From the sequence record PZ172995.1: a stretch of DNA of 64,000 nt; one strand, written 5' to 3'. Positions 4,907-23,896 of the stretch are shown in pieces. The DNA is from a phage. A program made the translations under genes and the position numbers. Within the stretch, counting starts at the first letter, position 1, and each line of letters opens with the position of its first letter. The notes below the pieces were generated by a model. The model saw only the letters and a list, made by a program, of their open reading frames with translations. It made no database searches and was not told the DNA's origin.

Positions 4907-5250
4907 TATAGTTTCCTCATTAAATACTTTTTAAGTTGTGTGTTAGGTTTCTCAAAAACTTCTATAGAAGATATCTTGACAGATTCACCACGCATACCAG
5001 TGTGTTTGAAAATATAGTACTCCAACATACCTATGTATTTTGCTGGTAAGTCATACTTGACGTACACTGTTACAGAATCTTCAAATTCAACAACCTTTGT
5101 ACCATCTTTGTAGTTAAACTCTTTAGGATGGTTGTAATTGTCGATGTCGTACATTAAAAAGAGTCTTTTCCGTTGCATGTCAAGCTTATTGGTTAAAGAC
5201 TCTTTGATATCTGAGAAGTTTTTATAGACTATGACATGGAGCTTACTCAT
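4906..5250 (-). CDS. hypothetical protein
   Basis: ORF with GAGAG RBS; start overlaps upstream stop. Confidence 0.6.
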   Translation of the reverse strand: MSKLHVIVYKNFSDIKESLTNKLDMQRKRLFLMYDIDNYNHPKEFNYKDGTKVVEFEDSVTVYVKYDLPAKYIGMLEYYIFKHTGMRGESVKISSIEVFEKPNTQLKKYLMRKL

Positions 5251-5536
5251 CGTTAAACTCTCTGACGAAGAAATAGTTGACTTTGTTATTACCTACCATA
5301 AGGTCAAAGCAGGTGTTCTCAAAAGGTTTGTTGTAGGCATCATATGAAGTGTACGTATCAGCTACTTGTTTAGTATTGAGCTTTTTACTTGATGGATTTA
5401 AGAGGCCACCATACAGTTTCTTGATAGCCTCTTCTACAACAGACCAGATGATTTCGTCAGTAATTTCTTCGTACAGGTCAAGTTCACGCTCTAGTGAGAA
5501 GTCACAAATAGGGAAAATAACCTGTACTTTACTCAT
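5243..5536 (-). CDS. hypothetical protein
   Basis: ORF; weak RBS. Confidence 0.5.
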   Translation of the reverse strand: MSKVQVIFPICDFSLERELDLYEEITDEIIWSVVEEAIKKLYGGLLNPSSKKLNTKQVADTYTSYDAYNKPFENTCFDLMVGNNKVNYFFVREFNDE

Positions 5537-5931
5537 TAGCGAATAACCTGTGTGACTTGAATTGCTTCAGTTACGGACAAATCACCTACTTTCTCTTCTT
5601 TGATAAAAGTGAAGGTGAGTTCAACAGGTTCTTGCTCTTCTTGCTCAACTGGAATACCGTTAAGCTCATCAAAGATTGATTGGGTAGTCCAGTCTTCTCC
5701 ACCATCTGGATAGTGGATGGCATAAAGAGGAAACTCTAAATTATACCAAGCAAAAACAGGACAACCGTCTGCATCATCTCGGCATCTGTGGAGGTACGTA
5801 TTTGTACCTTCAAAATGCAAATGAAGATTGCCATTCTTCTCAAATAGAAGAGCATCTCGCAGGTCTAGTTCCTCATTTTCGCTGTAACGACTGACATCAA
5901 CTTTAACGTGGATATGACTGTTATTATTCAT
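5536..5931 (-). CDS. hypothetical protein
   Basis: ORF with GAGAGAGG RBS. Confidence 0.6.
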   Translation of the reverse strand: MNNNSHIHVKVDVSRYSENEELDLRDALLFEKNGNLHLHFEGTNTYLHRCRDDADGCPVFAWYNLEFPLYAIHYPDGGEDWTTQSIFDELNGIPVEQEEQEPVELTFTFIKEEKVGDLSVTEAIQVTQVIR

Positions 5932-6327: not shown

Positions 6328-6362
6328 TCTCCTTAGAAAATAAAAAAGGCTCCCGAAGGAGC
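6328..6362 (-). terminator. Rho-independent terminator downstream of endolysin gene
   Basis: Minus-strand hairpin GGCTCC-TTCG-GGAGCC followed by a T-run. Confidence 0.7.
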
Positions 6363-6373
6363 CTATGAAGATA

Positions 6374-6838
6374 TTACTTTGGGTATACACTGTCAAGATA
6401 AATGTCAGCTTCCATTCTACGTCTGTTTTTCAGACCGTTTGAAGTGACCTTCTTACCTTTGACTGTAACCTTGTTCCACCACTGCATAGCTTCTGCACAA
6501 CCTACCTTATTACCAGCATTGTGACGCTTGATAAATGTAGAATCCTGCATAGCTGTGATACCGATGTTGTATGTTTCACTTACAAGTGCATCAAACTCAT
6601 TCTGAGAAGTTGGAACATTGATAGCTTTGTTCACTGCTGCAACGAATTTCTCAACATCTGCGAGAAGATACTGTTCAGCTTGTTCAGCAGTAATTTTCAT
6701 ACCCATCTTAACAGGTTTTTCGTCAATACTGATTGTACCATACCCGATTGTTGGGATTCCGGCAGAGTCTTCGTAAGCCTCTAACTTCAGACCTTCAAAG
6801 AACTTAATAGCTTCTAAACCTTTTCTTGAGAGTTGCAT
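6374..6838 (-). CDS. endolysin, T4-lysozyme-like (glycoside hydrolase family 24)
   Basis: N-terminal LEAYxDxAGIPTIGYG signature and overall T4 lysozyme-like layout in the 154-aa translation. Confidence 0.85.
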   Translation of the reverse strand: MQLSRKGLEAIKFFEGLKLEAYEDSAGIPTIGYGTISIDEKPVKMGMKITAEQAEQYLLADVEKFVAAVNKAINVPTSQNEFDALVSETYNIGITAMQDSTFIKRHNAGNKVGCAEAMQWWNKVTVKGKKVTSNGLKNRRRMEADIYLDSVYPK

Positions 6839-7722
6839 TATACCTCCCCTGTTGGGTTAACTGTAACTGTTGCTGCATTAGATGTCACAGAGCCACCTGC
6901 ACCAGTAACTACACAGGTGTAGCTTCCTGCGTCAGCAGTGGTTGCACCTTCTTTGGTGTAAGTTGCAGCAGTTGCGTCTGGGATGACTTCCTCACCTTTC
7001 TTCCACTGGTAACCTGTTGCACCAGTAGCTACAACACTTAGTGTCAAGGCAGAACCTTCAGTGATTTCTTGATTGGCTGGTTGTTGAGTGATAACTGGCA
7101 AAGCATTCACGGTTACTGTTGCTGCATCTGAGGTGACACTTGTCCCGCCCTCTCCAGATACAACGCAAGTGTATGAACCAGCATCAGAAGGAGCTACCGA
7201 CTGTTTTGTGTAAGTTGCAGAAGTGGCACTGGAGATATCCTCACCATCTTTCTTCCACTGATAACCAGTGGCATTAGATGCAACAACACTCAGAGTAAGC
7301 GTTCCACCTTCATTGACTGTTTGGTTTGTTGGTTGCTGAGTGATTGATGGTGGTGTGATGGCATCTTTCAACTTAGCGTTCAGCATTGAAAAAGGTTTAA
7401 CCCTTGCCAGCCATTCACAGTAAATTGTGTCAACATCTTTACCGTTGATGATTGCATACTGTAAATCCATGAAGAAATCAGCAGTCCTCATCTGTGCACC
7501 AACACTGTAAAGGAGTTCATCACTAAAAGGAACTTTGTAGTCTGGTTTGTAGTCAAACTTCTTAACCTCTGCGATATCAGCTTCAGGCCAATATGAGCTA
7601 TAGGTGAGTGGTAAAATAGCTTCTTGATATGTTCTAAAATCATATCTCTTACCAGCCTTTACATTTGCGATGAAACCCTTCACAAATTCTTTGAAGTCTG
7701 GGTAAGTCTTTGCTTTAATCAT
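6838..7722 (-). CDS. protein with two tandem Ig-like domains and an N-terminal domain paralogous to the upstream gene
   Basis: Two repeats of about 85 aa, each with YQWKK...DAGSYTCVV; N-terminus aligns with 7719..8090 product (FFMDLQYAI vs FLMDIQYVI); start overlaps upstream stop. Confidence 0.7.
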   Translation of the reverse strand: MIKAKTYPDFKEFVKGFIANVKAGKRYDFRTYQEAILPLTYSSYWPEADIAEVKKFDYKPDYKVPFSDELLYSVGAQMRTADFFMDLQYAIINGKDVDTIYCEWLARVKPFSMLNAKLKDAITPPSITQQPTNQTVNEGGTLTLSVVASNATGYQWKKDGEDISSATSATYTKQSVAPSDAGSYTCVVSGEGGTSVTSDAATVTVNALPVITQQPANQEITEGSALTLSVVATGATGYQWKKGEEVIPDATAATYTKEGATTADAGSYTCVVTGAGGSVTSNAATVTVNPTGEV

Positions 7723-8090
7723 TTCTTTTTAGCCTCTAAACGTGCGTTTAATCTAAAATAGCCTTTATGTTGTGGAGACACGTCACCAACAACGATACCT
7801 TCAACTTTATAACCTTTACCGATTACATACTGGATATCCATAAGAAATGTACCAAGTCCTACAATGTGGAACATTGGATATAATAACTTATCTGAATCTG
7901 GGAGATTAATGTCTGGGTTGTAGGTAGGTTGTTTACTAGTAGGTGTAATATCTTCTTCAGGCCATTTACTTAGTCTCCATGTCAAAGGTGTTGGGATAAC
8001 ATCATTAAGATTATATCTCTCACCTCTCTCCACGGAATTGATATAGGATTGTAGGAAGCAATAAAAGTCTTTTGCACTCTTAGCCTTCAT
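7719..8090 (-). CDS. hypothetical protein, paralog of N-terminal domain of the Ig-like protein
   Basis: Visible similarity to residues 1-110 of the 6838..7722 product; AAGGA RBS. Confidence 0.65.
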   Translation of the reverse strand: MKAKSAKDFYCFLQSYINSVERGERYNLNDVIPTPLTWRLSKWPEEDITPTSKQPTYNPDINLPDSDKLLYPMFHIVGLGTFLMDIQYVIGKGYKVEGIVVGDVSPQHKGYFRLNARLEAKKK

Positions 8091-8100
8091 TAAATATCCT

Positions 8101-8130
8101 TATAAATAGATAAAGGGGCATTAGCCCCTA
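8101..8130 (-). terminator. putative Rho-independent terminator
   Basis: Hairpin AGGGGC-ATTA-GCCCCT with T-rich tail on the minus strand. Confidence 0.45.
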
Positions 8131-8137
8131 TTTATAC

Positions 8138-8728
8138 TTAAGCTTTGGTCTTAAGTAGGTTCTTAAGTTTTTTGAGATTCATGCTCTCGTCAAACTTAAA
8201 ACCAAATCCATTGACATAATCAATGAACTCGGATTTCTTACTAAGTGATAGCGCGTAACTCATATCAAAGTTATTACTTGTTTCTGCGTCTGGGCTAGAG
8301 TTCACATCAAATGAAATTTCTGTAGGCTCTTGCTTGCTACTTCTCATATTATCAATCAATAGGCATGTATAGTTCGCTGGATAGAAGTTTGCACTACCAT
8401 CAACATACCCATACTTATTGTTGTGAATAAGGTTTGAAAATACCTTAAGAAATGTTTCTGAGTCGTGGCATACAAGTTTGAATTGACTGCACTCTCCAAG
8501 AGCCACTAGAGAGTAAGGGCTTTCACTATCAATGTCATAGTTTGGATTTAATGCTGTAACCGTCACACGCATCAAGTTATTAGCAATAGTCTTCTGTTTA
8601 AAAGAATTTGGGACATAGTGAAGACCTCTATCACACTGATTAACTAACTCTTTAAGTAGGTCATTTGCATAGGGTGAATTAATTGATACAGAGCCGTCAC
8701 TATTGTAATTAAAACTTACTGTTAACAT
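8138..8728 (-). CDS. hypothetical protein
   Basis: ORF with AGGAGA RBS. Confidence 0.65.
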   Translation of the reverse strand: MLTVSFNYNSDGSVSINSPYANDLLKELVNQCDRGLHYVPNSFKQKTIANNLMRVTVTALNPNYDIDSESPYSLVALGECSQFKLVCHDSETFLKVFSNLIHNNKYGYVDGSANFYPANYTCLLIDNMRSSKQEPTEISFDVNSSPDAETSNNFDMSYALSLSKKSEFIDYVNGFGFKFDESMNLKKLKNLLKTKA

Positions 8729-9800: not shown

Positions 9801-11216
9801 ATGAGCGAATTATTTAAACATGCGCACCTTCATGCAGGTCGAACTGAAAATGGTGCTGTAAACCATACTTCATCAATGTCTGCTCTGGTGGACTTTTACA
9901 AAGCCGCTGGCTCAAGCCGTAGCAATGTAGAAATCTTACCAGACCTGTTCTACAAAGCTTTGCGTGAGGATGTTGATGTTGCAGTTCGTATTTTACTGCA
10001 TATGCGAGATGTACGAGAAGGTATGGGTGAGCGTAAAGCTTTCCGAACTGTTTTACTTCAAGCGATTGAAGATAAGGTTTTAGAACCTACACAGGTTCTT
10101 CGCATTATGGATAAGATTGCAGAACTTGGTCGTTTTGATGACTTCAAAATCTTCGTAGGCACTCGTTTTGAGACAGATGCCTTCAAACATTTAGAAGCAG
10201 CATTACTAGACCCTGCAACAGCAGGTTTAGCAGCTAAGTGGTTACCACGAGTAAAACCACGCCACAAACAGTTTGTAAAACGTTTCTGTAAGTTTGCAAA
10301 CTTAAGCGAGAAGGAGTATCGCACACTGTTATCTGCACTGTCTGATACGGTTGAGCAAAAAATCTCTGCTAATGAGTTTGGTAAGATTGACTACAGCAAG
10401 GTTCCTTCACTCGCTGCTGCACGTTACCAAAAACTCTTTAACCGTAAAGATGGGGAACGTTACAAAGCTTACGTTGAGTCACTCTCAAAGGGTGAGGCTA
10501 AGATTAACGCTGGTGCTGTTTACCCATACGATGTGATTAAATCTATCAAGTATGGTAATGCAGATGTGGCTAATGAGCAGTGGAAAGCACTACCAAACTG
10601 GATGGCAGAAGGTGAGAACATCTTGTGTATGACTGATGTTTCAAGTTCAATGTCTTGGGTGAGTCTTGGTTCAATCACTGCCCTTGATGTTGGTGTATCC
10701 CTTGCCTTGTATGTAGCAGAACGCAACACAGGTTGCTTTAAAGATGAGTTAATGGTCTATTCAACAAACCCTCATTTCATTGAACTGAGTGGTGATTTAC
10801 GAAACCGTCATCGTCAGGTAATGCGTCATGTTGAATATGGTTCAACTAACTTACAAGCAGCTTTTGACCGCATTCTTGAAATAGGTAAGAGAAACAACTT
10901 GACTCAGAAAGATATGCCAAGTAAGCTTATTATCTTCTCTGATATGGAGTTTAATCAGGTTGATGGTGCAAATGGTCGTACAAACTTTGAAGCAATTCAG
11001 AGTAAGTACAAAAAAGCTGGATACGAAATGCCACAACTAGTATTCTGGTACTTAGCAAACCGTAATGGTACTTGCGAAGTATCTGTTAAGGATAATGGTG
11101 TAGCAATGGTATCAGGGTTCTCTCCAGCCACTTTAAAAGCTCTGCTTGGTGGTGAGAAGTTTGACCCAATCAGCGTAATGCTCAAAGCAGTAATGATTGA
11201 CCGTTACATCTGGTAA
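9801..11216 (+). CDS. DUF2828-like protein with C-terminal vWA/MIDAS-like motif (possible TROVE/Ro60-like fold)
   Basis: N-terminal RTENGAVNHTSSMSAL motif and DVSSSMS (DxSxS) motif in the 471-aa translation; strong RBS; family assignment from recalled signatures, not a search. Confidence 0.6.
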   Translation: MSELFKHAHLHAGRTENGAVNHTSSMSALVDFYKAAGSSRSNVEILPDLFYKALREDVDVAVRILLHMRDVREGMGERKAFRTVLLQAIEDKVLEPTQVLRIMDKIAELGRFDDFKIFVGTRFETDAFKHLEAALLDPATAGLAAKWLPRVKPRHKQFVKRFCKFANLSEKEYRTLLSALSDTVEQKISANEFGKIDYSKVPSLAAARYQKLFNRKDGERYKAYVESLSKGEAKINAGAVYPYDVIKSIKYGNADVANEQWKALPNWMAEGENILCMTDVSSSMSWVSLGSITALDVGVSLALYVAERNTGCFKDELMVYSTNPHFIELSGDLRNRHRQVMRHVEYGSTNLQAAFDRILEIGKRNNLTQKDMPSKLIIFSDMEFNQVDGANGRTNFEAIQSKYKKAGYEMPQLVFWYLANRNGTCEVSVKDNGVAMVSGFSPATLKALLGGEKFDPISVMLKAVMIDRYIW

Positions 11217-11380: not shown

Positions 11381-11457
11381 CTCTGTTTAGCTCAGCTTGG
11401 TAGAGCGTTCCGTTTGGGGCGGTAAGGCCGGAGGTTCAAGTCCTCCAACAGAGACCA
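11381..11457 (+). tRNA. tRNA-Pro (TGG)
   Basis: Hand-folded cloverleaf: acceptor CTCTGTT/AACAGAG, anticodon loop TTTGGGG, T-arm GGAGG-TTCAAGT-CCTCC, CCA encoded. Confidence 0.75.
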
Positions 11458-11464
11458 AATTAAT

Positions 11465-11542
11465 GTTCCAGTAGACAAAACGGTAAAGTCACCACTCTTT
11501 CAAAGTGGATATTTGAGGGTTCAAATCCCTTCTGGAACGCCA
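11465..11542 (+). tRNA. tRNA-Glu (TTC)
   Basis: Acceptor GTTCCAG/CTGGAAC, anticodon stem CCACT/AGTGG with loop CTTTCAA, T-loop TTCAAAT, CCA encoded. Confidence 0.75.
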
Positions 11543-11547
11543 GTTTT

Positions 11548-11623
11548 GACAGAAGACCAATTACAGCAAACTTAATCTACTCATCTGACACGAAATCGGA
11601 CAAAGAAGATATTTGGTCTGGTC
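11548..11623 (+). ncRNA. conserved hairpin element, copy 1 (basal stem CAGAAGACC / GGTCTGG, loop with CAGCAA)
   Basis: GACAGAAGACCA pairs with TGGTCTGGTC around a loop of about 50 nt; same stem in three further copies. Confidence 0.5.
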
Positions 11624-11632
11624 ATTAAGAAT

Positions 11633-11709
11633 TGCGGGTATAGAGAAAGGGCGTCTCACATGTCTCATTAGCATGGTATCGGCAGGTTCGACTCCTGCAC
11701 CCGCCTCCA
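11633..11709 (+). tRNA. tRNA-Met (CAT), irregular acceptor stem
   Basis: D-stem GAGA/TCTC, anticodon stem CATGT/GCATG with loop CTCATTA, T-arm GCAGG-TTCGACT-CCTGC; acceptor pairing imperfect. Confidence 0.55.
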
Positions 11710-11714
11710 ATTTT

Positions 11715-11778
11715 GCAGAAGACCGTATGCAGCAACAAACTACTTTTTTTGCGGATAAAAGAAAAAACACGGTCTGGC
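11715..11778 (+). ncRNA. conserved hairpin element, copy 2
   Basis: GCAGAAGACCG ... CAGCAA ... CGGTCTGGC. Confidence 0.5.
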
Positions 11779-11788
11779 AATATATTAA

Positions 11789-11865
11789 GGTTAGGAAGCA
11801 CATAAGGTATGTGCGGTCGCCTGTTAAGCGAATGGCACAGGGTTCGAATCCCTGACTAACCGCCA
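11789..11865 (+). tRNA. tRNA-Asn (GTT)
   Basis: D-stem GCAC/GTGC, anticodon loop CTGTTAA, T-arm CAGGG-TTCGAAT-CCCTG, CCA encoded. Confidence 0.7.
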
Positions 11866-11874
11866 AATTTAAAT

Positions 11875-11962
11875 GTGTCGTTATCCCGTAGATGGTAGCG
11901 GTGGGGACTGTAAATCCCTTGTCATTGAGACTCGGTAGGTTCGACTCCTACACGGCACACCA
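11875..11962 (+). tRNA. tRNA-Tyr (GTA), long variable arm
   Basis: Acceptor GTGTCGT/ACGGCAC, anticodon loop CTGTAAA, long variable arm, T-arm GTAGG-TTCGACT-CCTAC, CCA encoded. Confidence 0.7.
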
Positions 11963-11968
11963 AATAAA

Positions 11969-12046
11969 GGTTATGTAGTTTAATCTGGTTAAAATACTCC
12001 CCTGTCACGGGAGATGATGAGGGTTCAAATCCCTTCGTAACCGCCA
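11969..12046 (+). tRNA. tRNA-Asp (GTC)
   Basis: Anticodon stem CTCCC/GGGAG with loop CTGTCAC, T-arm GAGGG-TTCAAAT-CCCTT, CCA encoded. Confidence 0.8.
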
Positions 12047-12129
12047 AATTATAATAAGTATTTCAAAATGATGTTTGAGAGGGCTATTTAGCCCCTCCCT
12101 TAAAGAGTTCTTACGAGTATTCTTTAAAG

Positions 12130-12212
12130 GAGCAGAAGACCAAATTCAGCAAGTACGTATGATATTTTCAAGCCAATTTAATTTTGAAAAAATTTAAAAC
12201 TTGGTCTGGCTC
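12130..12212 (+). ncRNA. conserved hairpin element, copy 3
   Basis: GAGCAGAAGACCAA pairs with TTGGTCTGGCTC; loop contains CAGCAA. Confidence 0.5.
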
Positions 12213-12221
12213 AACAAATTT

Positions 12222-12357
12222 ACAGAAGACCGTTTACAGCAAAACTTAAACAATCTATTTCTCCGGTAAAGAAAAGGCGAAGGTTCGATTCCTTCACTCG
12301 GCAGATGTCGAGTTGGTGTAATGGTAGCACTTAAGATGACAAACAACGGTCTGGTAA
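12222..12357 (+). ncRNA. conserved hairpin element, copy 4, enclosing a tRNA-like module (T-arm hairpin, acceptor-like hairpin, D-arm-like hairpin); candidate Y-RNA-like RNA
   Basis: Basal stem ACAGAAGACCGTT / AACGGTCTGGTA; inside: GAAGG-TTCGATT-CCTTC (12279-12295), ACTCGGC-AGAT-GTCGAGT (12296-12313), GTGT-AATGGTA-GCAC (12316-12330). Confidence 0.45.
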
Positions 12358-12503
12358 TTATCTTTGTAGGTGAGCTATTAAGCTTACTTGTGAGTATGCG
12401 ACCACAAAGGGTGAAAGGGCAAATTCTAGATTTAAACCCAACAAGGCACATCGCTACAGACCTTAAGCAAGTCTGGGTAGCTTATCTACAAAGATAATTT
12501 AAT

Positions 12504-12579
12504 GGAAGTGTAGCAGAATGGTGATGCGGCAGACTTTTAATCTGACAGGCGATGGGTTCGAATCCCTCCACTTCTACCA
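12504..12579 (+). tRNA. tRNA-Lys (TTT)
   Basis: Acceptor GGAAGTG/CACTTCT, anticodon loop CTTTTAA, T-loop TTCGAAT, CCA encoded; paralogous to the Lys(CTT) tRNA at 13820. Confidence 0.7.
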
Positions 12580-12583
12580 ATAT

Positions 12584-12660
12584 GGTTCAGTCGCAGATAA
12601 GGTAATGCAGGGGTCTCATAAGCCCTATGAATGTGGGTTCGATTCCCATCTGAACCTCCA
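12584..12660 (+). tRNA. tRNA with CAT anticodon (Met or lysidine-Ile)
   Basis: Acceptor GGTTCAG/CTGAACC, anticodon loop CTCATAA, T-arm GTGGG-TTCGATT-CCCAT, CCA encoded. Confidence 0.7.
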
Positions 12661-12661
12661 A

Positions 12662-12737
12662 GCTGGTATAGTTAAGAAGGTTATAACACTCCCCTGATAA
12701 GGGAATATCGGTGGTTCGATTCCACCTACCAGTACCA
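12662..12737 (+). tRNA. tRNA-Ile (GAT)
   Basis: D-stem GTTA/TAAC, anticodon loop CTGATAA, T-arm GGTGG-TTCGATT-CCACC, CCA encoded. Confidence 0.75.
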
Positions 12738-12752
12738 ATTTCAATAAAGTTG

Positions 12753-12781
12753 TTGACATTGATATGTGACTATTTTATAGT
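12753..12781 (+). promoter_or_regulatory. sigma70-like promoter (TTGACA, 17 nt, TATAGT) inside the tRNA array
   Basis: TTGACA 12753-12758, TATAGT 12776-12781; downstream about 300 nt has no tRNA or ORF. Confidence 0.55.
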
Positions 12782-12832
12782 AACTGAAAATGATTCAGCA
12801 TATGTATAATTCAAACACCAATACATGAGCGT

Positions 12833-12904
12833 TAGACGTAACACAATGTGGGGAAATTTGTTGTACATATTCTGAATAGTTTTCGTTGCGTAGCGTCTAT
12901 TTTG
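12833..12904 (+). terminator. putative structured element ending in a T-run (possible sRNA 3' end)
   Basis: TAGACG ... CGTCTA stem enclosing about 55 nt, followed by TTTTGC. Confidence 0.3.
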
Positions 12905-13074
12905 CAAATTTAAAATAAATGCAAACGACAATGTTTTTCTGGCAGTAGCTTGATAGGCTAAACACCAGTGAGGTCTTCCAATCCCTCATCAAAGAATTTG
13001 GCGTACTAGCCCACGGTATGATTAATAAGGTGGGCATCTTTAAGGGCTTTCTAAGAGAGTCTTTAAAGATTAAT

Positions 13075-13151
13075 GCACCCTTAGTTCAATTGGATAGAGC
13101 AACGGTCTTCTAAATCGTTAGTTACAGGTTCGAATCCTGTAGGGTGTGCCA
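13075..13151 (+). tRNA. tRNA-Arg (TCT)
   Basis: Acceptor GCACCCT/AGGGTGT, anticodon loop CTTCTAA, T-arm ACAGG-TTCGAAT-CCTGT, CCA encoded. Confidence 0.75.
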
Positions 13152-13293
13152 AATAGTTAGCAGATTGCTTAGACGACCTTATCGGGTCTCCGCGTAAGGA
13201 GGTGGTCTGTATCTCATGTTTTCCAGAACATGTAAATAATCTGAGAAGGGGCTTTACAGTGTTGCGAAAATACGGTAAGCTTCGAATTATAGT

Positions 13294-13376
13294 GTGGGAC
13301 GATGTTAAGACTCTAAGGCATGAGCAACGGCCTCCAAAACCGTTTCAAAGGGGTTCAACTCCTCCGTCCCATGCCA
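13294..13376 (+). tRNA. tRNA-Trp (CCA)-like, atypical length and D-region
   Basis: Acceptor GTGGGAC/GTCCCAT, anticodon loop CTCCAAA, T-loop TTCAACT, CCA encoded; about 7 nt longer than canonical. Confidence 0.45.
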
Positions 13377-13389
13377 AAGTCTTATTAGG

Positions 13390-13477
13390 GGTAGGTAGCG
13401 GCTAATGGCAGCCAAACAGTCTTGAAAACTGTTGCAACTGTAGAGATACGGTGAGGGTTCGACTCCTTTACTTACCA
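13390..13477 (+). tRNA. tRNA-Ser (TGA), long variable arm
   Basis: Acceptor GGTAGGT/ACTTACC, anticodon stem ACAGT/ACTGT with loop CTTGAAA, variable arm about 20 nt, T-loop TTCGACT. Confidence 0.7.
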
Positions 13478-13634
13478 CCTAATAAGATTTTACACCGTCC
13501 ATGCTTGCTCGCATTTTCGGTTTATCCCTCGTGTATTGTCGTACACACTGATAAAGCACCTAGTAGGTGTCACGGAGAAGAGATAATATCAAGCTCTCCA
13601 AAGGTTCTAGTCACCGGATTAAACAAGACTATGC

Positions 13635-13656
13635 AAAGACCAATTTAGGTCTTTTT
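13635..13656 (+). terminator. putative Rho-independent terminator
   Basis: AAAGACC-AATTTA-GGTCTTT followed by TTT. Confidence 0.45.
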
Positions 13657-13735
13657 AGAGGGCTTCTAAGGTTATTACAGCTTGTTGTGGAACCTTGTTG
13701 CTTAGGTTCTTAGAAGTTCTCTAAAAAGATTTAAT

Positions 13736-13812
13736 GCACCTATAGCCCAACTGGTAGAGGCAGCAGACTTAGAATCTGCTCAGTGTGAGTTCGAATCTCT
13801 CTAGGTGTACCA
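13736..13812 (+). tRNA. tRNA with TAG anticodon (Leu by anticodon), short variable arm
   Basis: Acceptor GCACCTA/TAGGTGT, anticodon stem GCAGA/TCTGC with loop CTTAGAA, T-loop TTCGAAT, A73, CCA encoded. Confidence 0.65.
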
Positions 13813-13819
13813 AATTAAT

Positions 13820-13895
13820 GCAGGTGTAGCAAAATGGTTATGCGGCTGACTCTTAATCAGTAAGACGATGGGTTCAATTCCCTCCACCTGTACCA
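13820..13895 (+). tRNA. tRNA-Lys (CTT)
   Basis: Acceptor GCAGGTG/CACCTGT, anticodon loop CTCTTAA, T-loop TTCAATT, CCA encoded. Confidence 0.7.
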
Positions 13896-13901
13896 AACAT
13901 T

Positions 13902-13977
13902 GGGGTCATAGTTTATATGGTTAAAATTCGAGTTTTGCAAACTTGGGAACTGAGTTCAATTCTCAGTGACTCCACCA
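13902..13977 (+). tRNA. tRNA-Ala (TGC)
   Basis: Acceptor GGGGTCA/TGACTCC, anticodon loop TTTGCAA, T-arm CTGAG-TTCAATT-CTCAG, CCA encoded. Confidence 0.7.
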
Positions 13978-13983
13978 ATTAGT

Positions 13984-14058
13984 GCATCCATAGTTTAAAC
14001 GGGAAAATTACAGTCTTCCAAACTGAGGTTGAGGGTTCGATTCCCTCTGGATGCTCCA
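13984..14058 (+). tRNA. tRNA-Gly (TCC)
   Basis: Acceptor GCATCCA/TGGATGC, anticodon loop CTTCCAA, T-loop TTCGATT, CCA encoded. Confidence 0.75.
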
Positions 14059-14065
14059 AATTAAT

Positions 14066-14141
14066 GCTCCTATCGTATAATTGGCTATTACGGTTGCCTT
14101 GTAAGTAACTTATCAGGGTTCGAATCCTTGTGGGAGCACCA
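14066..14141 (+). tRNA. tRNA-Thr (TGT)
   Basis: Acceptor GCTCCTA/TGGGAGC, anticodon loop CTTGTAA, T-arm CAGGG-TTCGAAT-CCTTG, CCA encoded. Confidence 0.7.
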
Positions 14142-14238
14142 ATTTAGAGGTCAAGTGAAAGACCGCTTTGAGTCAACTGAAGACCGTAACAAATCCCACG
14201 GAGTTGAGTTAGCGGCACAACTTCAGACCTCTTTCCAC

Positions 14239-14313
14239 ACTCGCTTAGTTTATATGGTAAAACATCACCCTTACAAGATGAAGAAAAAGGTTCAAGTCCT
14301 TTAGTGAGTACCA
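14239..14313 (+). tRNA. tRNA-Val (TAC)
   Basis: D-stem GTTT/AAAC, anticodon loop CTTACAA, T-arm AAAGG-TTCAAGT-CCTTT, CCA encoded. Confidence 0.7.
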
Positions 14314-14314
14314 T

Positions 14315-14392
14315 GTTCCAGTATCCCAATTGGCAGAGGATGCAAGCTCAAACCTTGCACTAGTGACGGTTCGAATCCGTCTTGGAACACCA
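14315..14392 (+). tRNA. tRNA with CAA anticodon (Leu by anticodon), short variable arm
   Basis: Acceptor GTTCCAG/TTGGAAC, anticodon stem GCAAG/CTTGC with loop CTCAAAC, T-arm GACGG-TTCGAAT-CCGTC, A73, CCA encoded. Confidence 0.65.
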
Positions 14393-14397
14393 ATTTT

Positions 14398-14473
14398 GCA
14401 GGATTAGTTCAAATGGATAGAGCAACAGTCTACGAAGCTGTTAATAGGGGTTCGAGTCCCTTATCCTGCGCCA
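14398..14473 (+). tRNA. tRNA-Arg (ACG)
   Basis: Acceptor GCAGGAT/ATCCTGC, anticodon loop CTACGAA, T-loop TTCGAGT, CCA encoded. Confidence 0.75.
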
Positions 14474-14491
14474 GATAAGTAAGAGTGATTT

Positions 14492-14734
14492 ATGCAAACA
14501 TTAATCGTCGTTGAACATGAAAATTCCAATAGCATTGAGTTTGTAAGGGTTCCCACTATAGATACCCACATTTTCTTGAAAGTAGGCTGGGAATGTGACC
14601 CAATAAGAGTAGAAAAATTTATTGGTCATTACTTTGGTGGAAGACAACTTAAAAGTGTTAATTTTGAGACAATGTTACCAGAAAACTCAGAAACAAATAA
14701 TAATGTTTACCTCCTTACAAGGATTAGACAATGA
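14492..14734 (+). CDS. hypothetical protein encoded inside the tRNA array
   Basis: ORF with RBS; ATGA overlap with the next gene. Confidence 0.5.
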   Translation: MQTLIVVEHENSNSIEFVRVPTIDTHIFLKVGWECDPIRVEKFIGHYFGGRQLKSVNFETMLPENSETNNNVYLLTRIRQ

Positions 14735-15288
14735 GATATTTGAAGTATGTTTCATGGATTTTCTTAGCTTTGCTAGAGCCATTTGCAGCAATCTTAGCAG
14801 TCATCTTAGCACCTTTTGTAGTTCTATTCTACAGTGAGAAGAGAGGACACTTACCTTTCGGCTTCAGATGGATGGAAACATATGATAACCCAATTGATGG
14901 TGATAAAGGTCATGTCGAACGATGGGCTAAGATTAGAAAGATTGGTAAGCTTGGTATCTATATGCAGAGAGTTGGTTGGCTCTGGAGAAACAAAGCTTAT
15001 AACTTCTCTTACCATGTGTTAGGAAGAGATGTAAAAGATGTTACTAAGTGGAAAGGTAATATCAATGTAAGTTCTAACCCTGAAGATAATCAGACAGGTT
15101 ATCTCCTAATGTGGAACAGTAATGCTTGGGGATTATTCGCTTTTATCCCATCAATTAAACTCTTTGGTAAGCAATTCTACTGGAGAATTTATGTTGGATG
15201 GAAACTTAAAAGTGTTGTTCCAAAAGAAAGAGCATTCTCAAGGGAAAGAGTTATGTTGGCATTCTTTATTCATCCACTGAGAAAGTAA
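14731..15288 (+). CDS. hypothetical Trp-rich membrane protein encoded inside the tRNA array
   Basis: N-terminal hydrophobic helix WIFLALLEPFAAILAVILAPFVVLF in the 185-aa translation. Confidence 0.6.
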   Translation: MRYLKYVSWIFLALLEPFAAILAVILAPFVVLFYSEKRGHLPFGFRWMETYDNPIDGDKGHVERWAKIRKIGKLGIYMQRVGWLWRNKAYNFSYHVLGRDVKDVTKWKGNINVSSNPEDNQTGYLLMWNSNAWGLFAFIPSIKLFGKQFYWRIYVGWKLKSVVPKERAFSRERVMLAFFIHPLRK

Positions 15289-15296
15289 AGATTTAA

Positions 15297-15372
15297 AGGG
15301 GATTAGTTTACAAGGTTAAAACCTCGGTCTTTGAAATCGAAGAAGTTGGTTCAATTCCAACATCCCCCGCCA
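15297..15372 (+). tRNA. tRNA-Gln (TTG)
   Basis: Anticodon stem TCGGT/ATCGA with loop CTTTGAA, T-arm GTTGG-TTCAATT-CCAAC, CCA encoded. Confidence 0.7.
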
Positions 15373-15374
15373 AT

Positions 15375-15453
15375 GCTCCATTACTCCAATTGGCAGAGAG
15401 GCCAGACTTAAAATCTGTGTTATGTATCGGTTCGAATCCGATATGGAGTACCA
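15375..15453 (+). tRNA. tRNA with TAA anticodon (Leu by anticodon), short variable arm
   Basis: Acceptor GCTCCAT/ATGGAGT, anticodon loop CTTAAAA, T-arm ATCGG-TTCGAAT-CCGAT, A73, CCA encoded. Confidence 0.65.
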
Positions 15454-15458
15454 AATTT

Positions 15459-15534
15459 AGCGGTATAGCATAACTGGCAATGCAGCAGTCTCTGAAGCTG
15501 TCTTATTAAGGTTCAAATCCTTATGCCGCTGCCA
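15459..15534 (+). tRNA. tRNA-Gln (CTG)
   Basis: D-stem GCAT/ATGC, anticodon loop CTCTGAA, T-arm TAAGG-TTCAAAT-CCTTA, CCA encoded. Confidence 0.7.
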
Positions 15535-15565
15535 CTTCTAAGGATTCTTACGAGAGTCCTTAAAT

Positions 15566-15641
15566 GTGGCCTTATCATAAATGGTAATGACCCATGCTGT
15601 GAACATGGTCTATACGGGTTCAAATCCCGTAGGTCACCCCA
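15566..15641 (+). tRNA. tRNA-His (GTG)
   Basis: D-stem TCAT/ATGA, anticodon stem CCATG/CATGG with loop CTGTGAA, T-arm ACGGG-TTCAAAT-CCCGT, CCA encoded. Confidence 0.75.
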
Positions 15642-15646
15642 ATTTA

Positions 15647-15723
15647 TAGTCCAAGTAGCTTATATGGTTAAAGCGCGTGTCTGAAAAACATGAGAAGAGG
15701 GTTCAAATCCCACTGGACTACCA
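15647..15723 (+). tRNA. tRNA-Phe (GAA)
   Basis: Acceptor TAGTCCA/TGGACTA, anticodon stem CGTGT/ACATG with loop CTGAAAA, T-loop TTCAAAT; linker lengths slightly irregular. Confidence 0.65.
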
Positions 15724-15739
15724 ATTTCAAAGGTGCTTA

Positions 15740-16474
15740 ATGAAAGAGATGACAGGACAAGGTAAGGAGATTTTTAATCTCTTAAAAACCGGTAGAGGGT
15801 TTTCTAATCCCCTTATTACTGGTGCAGCAGTTCTCGGTGGAACCGTAGCTGCCTCTACATCACTTGTAAGCTCTATTAGCTCTGTAACAGACCCTACAAT
15901 AAAGGATAAACTTGTTGCCGCTGGACTTACAACAGTTCTGCTTAACAGCTTTACAACGAGTCTGACAAGCACTACATCCACCACTAAGACATTGACAGAT
16001 TACGGTCAAAAATCAATTGATGAGTTTTCATCACGTATGCAGGTAGCAAAAGGATATTCCAATGTTATGGGTGCAGCAGGAGAGCAAGTTGGTTGTACAC
16101 CATTTAGTGGTATTATGGGTGTTGCTACAGAATATGGTCAAAAAGCTATTGACACGATTAACAACACGTTAGACAGTGTTAACGGCGTGTTAAGTGACTT
16201 ACAGGATGCTATTGATAAAGGTCTTGATACTGTTTCTGATTTAGCTAACCAAGCTGTTAGCAAGATTAATGAAGGTATCTCGAAGATTACAGCTTATGCA
16301 GATGAAGTTGTGCAGATGATTGAAGAAGAAGCTGCCCTTATTGCAGAGTACCTTAAAACGAATATCAATGGGTTCTTAGCAGGTATTTTACCAGACTGGT
16401 TTGATGATGCTTGTAAAACTGGTGTGATTGACACTATTGCAACACCAGAAATGAAGAACGCATTACAGAAATAA
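15740..16474 (+). CDS. hypothetical Ser/Thr-rich protein encoded inside the tRNA array
   Basis: Track start 15677 lies inside tRNA-Phe; ATG at 15740 has AAAGGTG RBS; low-complexity S/T region then a helical C-terminal half. Confidence 0.6.
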   Translation: MKEMTGQGKEIFNLLKTGRGFSNPLITGAAVLGGTVAASTSLVSSISSVTDPTIKDKLVAAGLTTVLLNSFTTSLTSTTSTTKTLTDYGQKSIDEFSSRMQVAKGYSNVMGAAGEQVGCTPFSGIMGVATEYGQKAIDTINNTLDSVNGVLSDLQDAIDKGLDTVSDLANQAVSKINEGISKITAYADEVVQMIEEEAALIAEYLKTNINGFLAGILPDWFDDACKTGVIDTIATPEMKNALQK

Positions 16475-16475
16475 T

Positions 16476-16568
16476 GGAAGATTAACCCTAAAAGGTAAGG
16501 GAGCAGTTTGCTAAACTGCCAGTAGCTGAGAAATCGGTGTACCAGTTCAAGTCTGGTATCTTCCCCCA
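16476..16568 (+). tRNA. tRNA-Ser (GCT), long variable arm
   Basis: Acceptor GGAAGAT/ATCTTCC, anticodon stem GCAGT/ACTGC with loop TTGCTAA, variable arm about 21 nt, T-arm ACCAG-TTCAAGT-CTGGT, CCA encoded. Confidence 0.75.
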
Positions 16569-16572
16569 ATTT

Positions 16573-16648
16573 GAATCCGTGACAGAAATGGCTATGTGCC
16601 TGTCTGCAAAACAGGTTTATAAGGGTTCGAGTCCCTTCGGATTCTCCA
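16573..16648 (+). tRNA. tRNA-Cys (GCA)
   Basis: Acceptor GAATCCG/CGGATTC, anticodon stem CCTGT/ACAGG with loop CTGCAAA, T-arm AAGGG-TTCGAGT-CCCTT, CCA encoded. Confidence 0.8.
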
Positions 16649-17071: not shown

Positions 17072-17092
17072 TTCTATTTGCGGAGGTGCTTA

Positions 17093-18694: not shown

Positions 18695-18710
18695 TAGCTA
18701 GGTGAGAAGA

Positions 18711-22789: not shown

Positions 22790-23896
22790 ATGTTGACTAA
22801 TTCTGAAAAAAGCAGATTTTTCCTTGCTGACCTGACTGGTGAAGTCCAGTCTATCCCAAATACTTATGGGTATATTTCCAACTTAGGTCTGTTCCGTTCA
22901 GCACCAATCACCCAAACTACTTTCCTTATGGACTTGACTGATTGGGATGTTAGCTTGCTTGATGCGGTAGACCGTGATAGCCGTAAAGCAGAGACTAGCG
23001 CACCTGAGCGTGTTCGCCAAATCAGCTTCCCAATGATGTACTTCAAAGAAGTTGAAAGCATCACTCCTGATGAGATTCAGGGTGTACGTCAGCCAGGCAC
23101 TGCAAACGAACTGACTACTGAAGCTGTAGTACGTGCTAAGAAGCTGATGAAGATTCGTACCAAGTTCGATATTACTCGTGAGTTCCTGTTTATGCAAGCT
23201 CTGAAGGGTAAAGTTGTCGATGCTCGTGGTACTCTGTACGCTGACCTGTACAAGCAGTTCGACGTTGAGAAGAAGACTATTTACTTCGACCTTGACAATC
23301 CTAATGCTGACATTGACGCTGCTATTGAAGAACTGCGTATGCACATGGAAGACGAAGCTAAGACTGGCACTGTAATCAACGGTGAAGAAATTCACGTAGT
23401 TGTTGACCGCTTATTCTTCAGCAAACTGGTTAAACACCCTAAGATTCGTGACGCTTATCTTGCACAGCAGACTCCGCTGGCTTGGCAACAGATTACTGGT
23501 TCTCTGAGAACTGGTGGTACTGACGGCGTTCAGGCTCACATGAACACCTTCTACTACGGTGGTGTTAAGTTTGTCCAGTACAACGGTAAGTTCAAAGACA
23601 AGCGTGGCAAGGTTCACACTCTGGTGAGCATTGATAGTGTAGCAGCAACTGTTGGTGTAGGTCATGCTTTCCCTAACGTTTCTATGCTGGGTGAAGCAAA
23701 CAACATCTTCGAAGTGGCATATGGTCCATGTCCTAAGATGGGTTATGCAAATACACTTGGTCAGGAACTGTATGTATTCGAATACGAAAAAGACCGTGAC
23801 GAAGGTATTGACTTTGAAGCTCACTCTTACATGCTGCCATACTGCACACGTCCTCAGTTGCTGGTAGACGTTCGTTCTGACGCTAAACCAGACTAA
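22790..23896 (+). CDS. major capsid protein (by synteny and size)
   Basis: 368-aa ORF with GGAGA RBS directly after the protease/scaffold and small head gene. Confidence 0.65.
   Translation: MLTNSEKSRFFLADLTGEVQSIPNTYGYISNLGLFRSAPITQTTFLMDLTDWDVSLLDAVDRDSRKAETSAPERVRQISFPMMYFKEVESITPDEIQGVRQPGTANELTTEAVVRAKKLMKIRTKFDITREFLFMQALKGKVVDARGTLYADLYKQFDVEKKTIYFDLDNPNADIDAAIEELRMHMEDEAKTGTVINGEEIHVVVDRLFFSKLVKHPKIRDAYLAQQTPLAWQQITGSLRTGGTDGVQAHMNTFYYGGVKFVQYNGKFKDKRGKVHTLVSIDSVAATVGVGHAFPNVSMLGEANNIFEVAYGPCPKMGYANTLGQELYVFEYEKDRDEGIDFEAHSYMLPYCTRPQLLVDVRSDAKPD

Follow-up and report, generated by a model that had tools for sequence, protein, structure and literature searches.

A predicted free-standing copy of the Hex-Dec capsid-binding domain in the endolysin locus of a Felix O1-like phage

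Introduction

Phages of the Felix O1 type are used in Salmonella typing, biocontrol and therapy. Their capsids carry a decoration protein that has been seen by cryo-EM in phages Bas63 (Escherichia phage JohannRWettstein; Hex-Dec, PDB 9NCF chain S) and Sf14 (gp20; PDB 9C2D and 9C3A chain S). In both structures the N-terminal domain sits as a plug in each pentamer-proximal hexamer of the T=9 capsid (60 in all), and the Ig domains point outwards. This capsid-binding domain (CapBD) is made of two similar lobes (Bas63 paper). The hexamer centres of the capsid are open pores, and Asp221 of the major capsid protein (MCP) contacts Arg79 and Arg107 of the Hex-Dec-type protein (Sf14 paper). Mass spectrometry of Felix O1 virions detected gp36 (14 peptides; PMC3185647), which has the same length as its orthologue described here, and gp20 was detected in Sf14 virions.

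Like Hoc of phage T4, Hex-Dec occupies the hexamer centre as a monomer, carries an outward-pointing string of Ig-like domains, and is non-essential and adhesin-like. Unlike the C-terminal capsid-binding domain of Hoc, the CapBD of Hex-Dec lies at the N-terminus; it is also larger and differs in topology (Bas63 paper), and Hex-Dec fills only 60 of the 80 hexamers.

Results

The three-gene unit

The DNA analysed is a stretch of 64,000 nt (PZ172995.1; the window). It comes from a Felixounavirus: Escherichia phage HMD-P10 shares 98.6% identity with it, and a nucleotide search matched 253 Felix O1-like records. Three adjoining ORFs lie on the minus strand, encoding proteins of 123 aa (7719–8090), 294 aa (6838–7722) and 154 aa (6374–6838). 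These are a paralogue of the CapBD, Hex-Dec and the lysin, the same gene order as in Bas63 and Sf14. Many of the genes around that of the paralogue are small and of unknown function.

The unit is enclosed by two terminator-like hairpins on the same strand. The GC hairpin AGGGGC-TAAT-GCCCCT (8114–8129) lies between the gene of a phrog_4034 protein and that of the paralogue, with flanks TATAAATA and TATTTATA (8101–8136). A rho-independent terminator is annotated at the same place in wV8, and the Felix O1 counterpart is given in Table 2 of PMC3185647. An intrinsic terminator, AGGCTCC-TTCG-GGAGCCT followed by a T-run (6347–6364), closes the unit. We considered whether the phrog_4034 protein might be a relative of T4 Inh, mirroring the inh-hoc adjacency of T4, and rejected this; hmmscan at E≤10 failed to recover a 'faint' PF26097 match, hhalign gave 9.7% probability over 25 residues, and no PDB relative was found.

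The paralogue is preceded by a ribosome-binding site AAGGA (8097–8101, minus strand), 6 nt 5′ of its ATG. Its stop codon overlaps the start of Hex-Dec by four bases (ATGA, 7719–7722). Ten nucleotides before the Hex-Dec ATG, within Leu-Glu-Ala codons of the paralogue, is a GAGG (7733–7736, minus strand) that is kept at this junction in all lineages; this is likely to be the Shine-Dalgarno site for translation of Hex-Dec coupled to that of the paralogue. The stop of Hex-Dec overlaps the lysin start by a single base (TAATG; 6838–6840 and 6836–6838), as had been described in the initial annotation, with the Shine-Dalgarno GGAGG of the lysin (6843–6847, minus strand) lying within the last codons of Hex-Dec. 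A –1 frameshift fusing the paralogue to Hex-Dec at GCT-AAA-AAG-AAA-TGA was rejected because neither the slippery run nor the frame relation is conserved. The AAA-AAG present in the window is absent from wV8, Sf14, Moogle, SUSP1 and L021, the last of which also has another frame relation.

The 154-aa protein is a T4-lysozyme-like endolysin (GH24 by Pfam, PHROG and reading of the sequence) that lacks an N-terminal hydrophobic segment. It matches PF00959 over residues 13–143 (E=2e-40), and the catalytic spacing E15-8 residues-D24-5 residues-T30 is present in the translation.

The 294-aa protein

The second protein of the unit is almost certainly Hex-Dec, i.e. the equivalent of Sf14 gp20 and Felix O1 gp36. 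It aligns over its full length, from residue 1, with 9ncf_S (E=1e-243) and 9c2d_S (E=1e-166) using phmmer, and phrog_3995 covers it end to end. The architecture read earlier from the sequence, an N-terminal domain followed by two Ig-like domains, is borne out. The CapBD (residues 1–122; 7357–7722) is followed by Ig-like domain 1 (residues 123–206; 7105–7356) and Ig-like domain 2 with a short C-terminal tail (residues 207–294; 6841–7104), all on the minus strand; Pfam places two Ig_3/I-set stretches at residues about 124–290 (E=2e-22), and the two domains are 70% identical. The number of Ig domains is two in the window and in Felix O1, four in Bas63 and three in Sf14, a variation that has been described (Bas63 paper). 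The CapBD differs from that of Bas63 at five of 122 residues. The MCP-contacting Arg79 and Arg107 are both kept, as in Bas63, and Asp221 is kept in the MCP of the window (22790–23896, plus strand), the binding partner of Hex-Dec.

The Hoc-like PHROGs 2973 and 4069 match the Ig region only (residues 121–291). No Hoc-type C-terminal CapBD is found, and Hex-Dec is thus not a member of the T4 Hoc family through its anchoring domain. The Ig region also matches T5 pb10 (5lxk_A, E=1e-12), with no detectable similarity in the CapBD.

Entries in GenBank and UniRef carry the name 'tail protein', phrog_3995 is labelled tail, and gp36 was called 'major tail protein' by Whichard 2010 (PMC3185647). However, that name goes back to a mass spectrometry assignment of 2010 made without localization, and two cryo-EM models place residues 1–120 in the centres of capsid hexamers. 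We therefore reject the annotation, and the widespread label should be corrected to 'capsid hexamer decoration protein'. That Hex-Dec and the paralogue are tail proteins, or that the Ig protein is a non-structural product of a lysis or early cluster, is highly improbable; the latter is also at odds with the late expression of the Felix O1 orthologues (below). The question of whether the Ig protein is structural, raised in the initial annotation, is answered by the Felix O1 and Sf14 virions and the two cryo-EM capsid maps. Its expectation that the Ig domains act in surface binding is correct. The capsid decoration role is already solved in Felix O1-like phages, and Hex-Dec itself adds nothing new.

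The free-standing paralogue

What is new in the locus is the upstream gene, whose sequence and predicted fold mark its product as a second, free-standing capsid-binding domain. Its product corresponds to Felix O1 ORF37, Sf14 gp21, bas63_0125, VpaE1_040 and phrog_4463. Pairwise alignment with the first ~120 residues of Hex-Dec gives 36% identity over 121 residues (E=8e-17), with the previously noted motifs FLMDIQYVI and FFMDLQYAI inside the alignment, and the match to 9ncf_S has E=4e-12. The AlphaFold2 model of the paralogue is of moderate confidence (pLDDT 68). In a Foldseek search of the PDB it matches 9c2d_S and 9ncf_S (TM 0.64, probability 1.0); these are the only matches at E≤0.001, the next having E=0.41. 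The significant alignment and the fold match thus dispose of the objection that the initial annotation had raised against itself, i.e. that the two N-terminal domains might lack similarity.

A PHROG search returned phrog_4463, of unknown function, as the sole match. The protein is neither discussed nor modelled in the two cryo-EM studies, and gp21 is not mentioned in the Sf14 supplement. We found no characterised counterpart of a free-standing domain that has no display domain, lacks Arg79 and coexists with a full-length Hex-Dec. The MCP-anchoring Arg79 is replaced by Gly in every paralogue. In place of Arg107 they have Gln, His or Asn; only P0055 of the L021 lineage and cluster P0046 keep Arg. 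In the L018 lineage an Ig-less capsid-binding domain (P0061) is the sole copy and occupies the Hex-Dec position. The gene contexts of the divergent P0055 and P0061 were taken from the contigs encoding them; IMG/VR scans gave no matches to either.

The paralogues are monophyletic in 200 of 200 bootstraps, which points to one old duplication; the group takes in a metagenomic lineage of about 46% identity in which the gene trio is retained. The paralogue and Hex-Dec are kept as neighbours across at least four lineages. The dN/dS of the paralogue is 0.12 overall, 0.24 in residues 17–68 and 0.065 in residues 69–121, indicating purifying selection; the value for the same C-terminal lobe of Hex-Dec is 0.036. 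Overall the paralogue evolves four times faster than the CapBD of Hex-Dec.

The paralogue is missing from 20 of the 253 Felix O1-like records (about 8%). All five of these that were examined carry a pseudogene with the same internal deletion of roughly 220 nt and loss of the ATG. Hex-Dec is intact in four of them (REP6, fBSPA4, SP116 and CECAV_041), the exception being Z31. Kolesnikviruses have Hex-Dec and the lysin without the paralogue. The comparison across genomes thus indicates that the paralogue is conserved but dispensable. The order of a capsid-binding gene and then a lysozyme gene is kept in five Ounavirinae-like lineages; the adjacency is a trait of the lineage and no peculiarity of this genome. 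The initial annotation called it unusual that the Ig gene lies outside the structural operon; the distance of Hex-Dec from the structural module had already been remarked (Whichard 2010; Bas63 paper 2025, 'more than 10 kb outside').

Expression of the unit

Felix O1 ORF36 and ORF37 are syntenic orthologues of Hex-Dec and the paralogue with the same lengths, and ORF35 is the lysin; the ORF numbering has been verified. By RT-PCR, the timing of which is coarse, ORF36 and ORF37 transcripts are at their maximum at 60 min, as are those of the structural ORFs 51, 53, 63, 64, 72, 73, 76 and 77; those of ORF35 reach theirs at 25 min (PMC3185647, Table 3). The late transcription of ORF36 and ORF37 means that the locus is not an early cluster, and the earlier description of a lysis or early cluster is not upheld. 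We consider it probable that the three genes form one middle-to-late operon. Since the lysin peaks before both of its upstream neighbours, a single transcript may not cover all three genes.

A sigma-70-like site was not found in the 47-nt spacer before the paralogue, and no promoter was identified for the unit. A T4-type late promoter octamer in TATAAATA, just upstream of the hairpin, was tried and rejected; it occurs six times in the window against 3.8 expected, which is no enrichment, and it does not precede the structural genes. Searches of the literature gave nothing usable on transcriptomics, late promoters or further proteomics of Felixounavirus.

Discussion

The locus is probably best explained as a middle-to-late unit of a Felix O1-like myophage in which a CapBD-only paralogue, Hex-Dec and the endolysin are encoded together, with Hex-Dec decorating the capsid. 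Coupling would occur through the overlapping stop and start codons and the Shine-Dalgarno sites inside the upstream coding sequences, and the endolysin would be included in the unit because both it and Hex-Dec are needed late. By analogy with the homologues, the CapBD of Hex-Dec would be monomeric and occupy the open, Asp-lined centre of each pentamer-proximal hexamer (60 in the T=9 capsid), its Arg79 and Arg107 forming salt bridges with MCP Asp221. The two Ig domains would point outward and presumably serve in adhesion or aggregation, like those of T4 Hoc. We apply this placement to the phage of the window because the homologues show it and all the contact residues are present. The 123-aa gene would then be an old Ig-less duplicate of the CapBD in which the fold is retained and the C-terminal lobe is under strong constraint, with the Arg79 anchor changed to Gly. 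Our tentative preference, at somewhat less than even chances, is that its product still recognises MCP capsomers as a non-structural, or transient and low-occupancy, factor in head assembly or maturation, and is not a stable component of the virion. The loss of Arg79, and of Arg107 in most paralogues, could mean that the protein has ceased to bind the capsid altogether.

The paralogue might instead be stably bound. It would then be a third capsid decoration protein, filling those capsomers from which Hex-Dec is barred: either the 20 true-three-fold hexamers or the 11 pentons. It would have gone unnoticed because icosahedral averaging blurs a 14-kDa monomer that lies on a symmetry axis, and because such a protein is close to the limit of what the published proteomes could detect. 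The Sf14 authors attribute the exclusion of Hex-Dec from the true three-fold hexamers to an altered geometry of Asp221 that defeats Arg79 and Arg107, and these are the very residues changed in most paralogues. The fold is that of the domain that plugs hexamers, the hexamer centres of the Sf14 capsid are open, the C-terminal lobe is under about the same constraint as in Hex-Dec, and the paralogue is expressed late alongside Hex-Dec, with which it is coupled in translation. Yet the Bas63 authors found the remaining hexamers free of density, and those of Sf14 report gp20-type density only on the quasi-three-fold ones, though both phages encode the paralogue. The ORF37 product is absent from the list of Felix O1 virion proteins (PMC3185647), and VpaE1_040 is not among the 22 proteins of the VpaE1 virion, although these lists do include proteins of 9.7–13 kDa. 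The natural pseudogene lineages and the Kolesnikviruses also manage without it. We regard a third decoration protein as rather unlikely. Non-detection by mass spectrometry and icosahedral averaging are compatible with 11–20 copies per virion. A missed third head protein taken more broadly, i.e. either such a plug of true-three-fold hexamers or pentons, or a placeholder in procapsid hexamers that is replaced or lost on expansion, is unlikely.

Two further roles were weighed. A function unrelated to the capsid, e.g. in host interaction or counter-defence, with the fold merely recalling the origin of the protein, would be consistent with the loss of the Arg79 anchor from all paralogues, the fourfold faster evolution and dN/dS of 0.24 in residues 17–68, the absence from Felix O1 and VpaE1 virions, and the many small genes of unknown function around it. 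Against this, expression is late alongside structural genes, coupling to Hex-Dec is tight, the only PHROG match is phrog_4463, and constraint is strongest in the lobe that in Hex-Dec contacts the MCP. We likewise judge this unlikely. Co-production with Hex-Dec, suggested by the ATGA overlap and the conserved Shine-Dalgarno, and the adjoining of the two genes in at least four lineages would suit a protein that acts on Hex-Dec itself, as a chaperone, an anti-aggregation partner or a regulator of occupancy until expanded heads are available; as the CapBD is made of two similar lobes, homotypic lobe contacts are plausible. But the Hex-Dec ORF and its CapBD are intact and highly conserved in REP6, fBSPA4, SP116 and CECAV_041, where the paralogue is a pseudogene, and the Kolesnikviruses and L018 lineage have a CapBD protein without any paralogue. 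Such a partner role is therefore improbable.

Although the capsid hexamers are chemically identical, Hex-Dec already distinguishes those in one quasi-equivalent position from those in another. The evolution of such selectivity could be traced in a conserved sister domain with altered anchor residues, or that domain could point to a transient factor of head assembly. If the paralogue were a third head protein, one duplicated CapBD would have specialised to tell apart the quasi-equivalent capsomers of a single MCP. The paralogue is a small lead that is cheap to test. Anchors of the Hoc type are used for capsid display, and a smaller second anchor domain could therefore be practical if the paralogue binds capsids.

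Identity of the Ig-like protein

The three genes lie on the minus strand and encode a 123-aa protein (7719-8090), a 294-aa Ig protein (6838-7722) and a 154-aa endolysin (the lysin, 6374-6838). The initial annotation had described the first as a free-standing paralog of the N-terminal domain of the second, which would carry two Ig-like domains and be coupled to a T4-lysozyme-like endolysin downstream, and this is confirmed in full. Pairwise alignment with the paralog gives 36% identity (E=8e-17) over residues 2-119 of the 294-aa protein; two Ig-like domains (Ig_3/I-set), 70% identical to one another, occupy residues ~124-290; and the lysin is a PF00959 lysozyme (E=2e-40) whose gene shares one base with that of the Ig protein, in TAATG.

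A sequence search of the PDB returned 9ncf_S (E=1e-243) and 9c2d_S/9c3a (E=1e-166), with alignments that start at residue 1. 9NCF is the Bas63 capsid, in which the decoration protein Hex-Dec is limited to facet-edge hexamers and has disordered Ig domains (PMC12609058). 9C2D is the capsid of Sf14, where gp20 is a monomer attached via its first 118 residues and confined to pentamer-proximal hexamers, 60 per T=9 capsid, with Arg79 and Arg107 making salt bridges to Asp221 of the major capsid protein (MCP) (PMC11821841). Both arginines are present in the window Hex-Dec, and Asp221 in the window MCP. Virion proteomics likewise indicates that the Ig protein is structural: mass spectrometry detected homologues in the virions of Sf14 (gp20; PMC11821841) and of Felix O1, where 14 peptides came from the product of ORF36, the Hex-Dec orthologue of equal length (294 aa), which was given the name 'tail protein' (PMC3185647). 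The same label in GenBank, UniRef and phrog_3995 evidently derives from that naming. We are highly confident of the Hex-Dec identity and mechanism of the 294-aa protein.

Hex-Dec works in the manner of T4 Hoc, but it is not a member of that family through its anchor domain. Hoc-like PHROG matches are restricted to the Ig part, and the Bas63 authors describe the domain at the N-terminus that binds the capsid (CapBD) as larger than that of Hoc, different in topology and located at the other end of the protein (PMC12609058). The main element of the finding is thus already explained in the literature, and the residual novelty is the Ig-less paralog.

Organization, location and timing of the unit

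The paralog and Hex-Dec genes overlap by ATGA. A GAGG (7733-7736) inside the paralog coding sequence lies at Shine-Dalgarno distance before the Hex-Dec start codon and is conserved in all lineages examined; a GGAGG (6843-6847) inside the Hex-Dec coding sequence is similarly placed for the lysin. A GC hairpin (8114-8129) separates the preceding gene from the paralog and a clear intrinsic terminator (6347-6364) follows the lysin; the annotation of phage wV8 has both as terminators. The 3′ end of the paralog gene (7719-7731, minus strand) reads GCT AAA AAG AAA TGA, a dnaX-like slippery run. A −1 frameshift here would fuse the paralog in frame to Hex-Dec, but other genera do not share the run and we treat it as coincidental.

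The Ig gene is ~15 kb from the MCP gene (22790-23896), on the opposite strand and beyond a cluster of 26 tRNA genes (11381-16648, plus strand), with terminase at 17078, portal at 18702, prohead protease at 21021 and tail sheath at 25822. The location had been called unusual. It is indeed far from the morphogenesis module, but this was already remarked by Whichard et al. 2010 (PMC3185647) and in the Bas63 paper (PMC12609058), and the order recurs across lineages. A CapBD gene is followed directly by a lysozyme gene in Felixounavirus, Mooglevirus (Sf14, Moogle), Suspvirus (SUSP1), Kolesnikvirus (SPARTY, ST-3) and two metagenomic lineages, L021 and L018, while in a distant lineage, L023, the CapBD-Ig gene is placed instead among baseplate, head and tail genes. 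The distant L018 (Logan SRR33913825 contig) encodes at 5001-5462, still directly before lysozyme, a CapBD without Ig domains, with a Lys/Ser/Glu-rich tail that is probably disordered.

The suggestion of an early cluster does not hold. RT-PCR in Felix O1 places the peak of ORF36 and ORF37 (the paralog) at 60 min, as for structural ORFs 51, 53, 63, 64, 72, 73, 76 and 77, and that of lysin ORF35 and upstream ORF38 at 25 min (PMC3185647), so that this is a middle-to-late unit; we are fairly confident of a late operon. The shift from 25 min (ORF38) to 60 min (ORF37/36) falls at the place of a palindromic spacer (8101-8136) between the phrog_4034 gene and the paralog, consisting of TATAAATA, the GC hairpin and TATTTATA. 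The spacer contains a T4 late-promoter octamer, a motif not enriched across the window (6 observed, 3.8 expected).

The phrog_4034 gene (8138-8728, minus strand; 196 aa) is syntenic directly upstream of the CapBD gene in every Ounavirinae-like lineage examined, for example at 4444-5001 in L018, 4368-4955 in L021 and 2215-2832 in L007, another relative's locus. Its product has no Pfam or PDB match; its last 25 residues show a weak resemblance to the N-terminus of T4 Inh (hhalign probability only 9.7%). In T4 the inh gene adjoins hoc.

The Ig-less paralog

Very few proteins belong to the paralog/CapBD family: when 1.84 billion representative proteins were searched with a profile, only 12 clusters came up. 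Free-standing CapBDs form P0036, P0051 and P0055; P0061 has a Lys/Ser/Glu-rich tail and is the single copy in its lineage; the rest bear Ig or Big_2 domains, except P0059, a repetitive 632-aa protein that looks spurious. P0053 (209 aa) has the appearance of a frameshifted Hex-Dec, as in Z31 (below). The paralog is 67-97% identical over Felixounavirus, Mooglevirus and Suspvirus, and only ~46% in L021, an 87-kb metagenomic scaffold that keeps the order phrog_4034, paralog, Hex-Dec, lysozyme. A neighbour-joining tree recovers the paralogs as a monophyletic group in 200/200 bootstraps, and likewise the Ig-fused proteins of these phages (200/200), so that there was one old duplication.

The paralog has dN/dS of 0.12, compared with 0.03 for the Hex-Dec CapBD and 0.09 for both Ig domain 1 and the lysin. 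The excess lies mainly in residues 17-68 (0.24). Constraint on residues 69-121 (0.065, mean identity 92%) is about equal to that on the corresponding lobe of Hex-Dec (0.036, 94%), which bears Arg79 and Arg107. Where Hex-Dec has Arg79, every paralog has Gly; where it has Arg107, most carry Gln, His or Asn, Arg being kept in P0055 (L021) and P0046. Lys109 is retained. Structure prediction of the N-terminal domain, run on the paralog (AlphaFold2, pLDDT 68), gave a model whose PDB matches are the two solved CapBDs only. Purifying selection and deep conservation show that the paralog is functional.

The paralog is missing in 20 of the 253 Felix O1-like records that match the window region. Five of these were examined (REP6, Z31, fBSPA4, SP116 and CECAV_041), and all have the same remnant, with the ATG lost, frameshifts and an internal deletion of ~220 nt; this common remnant points to a single ancestral loss. 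Hex-Dec is intact in four of the five. In Shigella phage Z31 (L006, 2998-3570) it is split into a 134-aa CapBD fragment and a 55-aa Ig fragment, so that Z31, lacking the paralog too, would from its sequence come close to a natural null of the entire decoration system. Kolesnikviruses have no paralog whatever. Together with the paralog-less records and the intact Hex-Dec there, this shows that the paralog is dispensable and not required for maintenance of Hex-Dec.

Possible role of the paralog

The paralog gene is transcribed late in Felix O1 (PMC3185647). Both structurally solved phages carry it (bas63_0125 and FDI99_gp021), and neither 'paralog' nor 'gp21' appears in the Bas63 and Sf14 cryo-EM papers or the Sf14 supplement. 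An attractive reading is that it is a minor decoration protein, overlooked so far, that sits on three-fold hexamers or pentons, since the residues changed in it are those by which the Sf14 authors explain discrimination between sites (PMC11821841). Proteomics, cryo-EM maps and natural deletions all count against this. The Felix O1 virion list lacks the product yet includes proteins of 9.7-13 kDa (PMC3185647). VpaE1 has 22 virion proteins, adding only gp54, gp58 and gp68 to the Felix O1 set, and by the wording of the VpaE1 paper VpaE1_040, the paralog, is outside them. No density on the remaining hexamers is reported for Bas63 or Sf14 (PMC12609058, PMC11821841).

A role as chaperone or regulator of Hex-Dec is weakened by the pseudogene lineages, and a new role unconnected with the capsid is a further alternative. 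We favour a capsomer-recognising accessory protein that would not be stably incorporated; procapsids may be its target, or it may work at low occupancy. The grounds are that the paralog is expressed together with a capsid binder to which it is coupled, retains the fold and is under strong constraint in its MCP-facing lobe, yet is absent from virion data.

Other features of the region

The window region shares 98.6% identity with Escherichia phage HMD-P10. The HMD-P10 homologue of 5536-5931 (minus strand) is annotated 'D-alanyl-D-alanine carboxypeptidase', a label that looks unsupported; the window protein has no Pfam family and matches solely phrog_4348, of unknown function. Directly upstream of the tRNA cluster is a 471-aa RNA-binding protein (phrog_850; 9801-11216, plus strand), whose homologues in L018 and Sf14 carry DUF2828 (pfam11443). 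The 147-kb record GU169904.1, 'Staphylococcus phage SA1', contains the Felix O1-like locus described here at 143196-143558 and is probably chimeric or contaminated.
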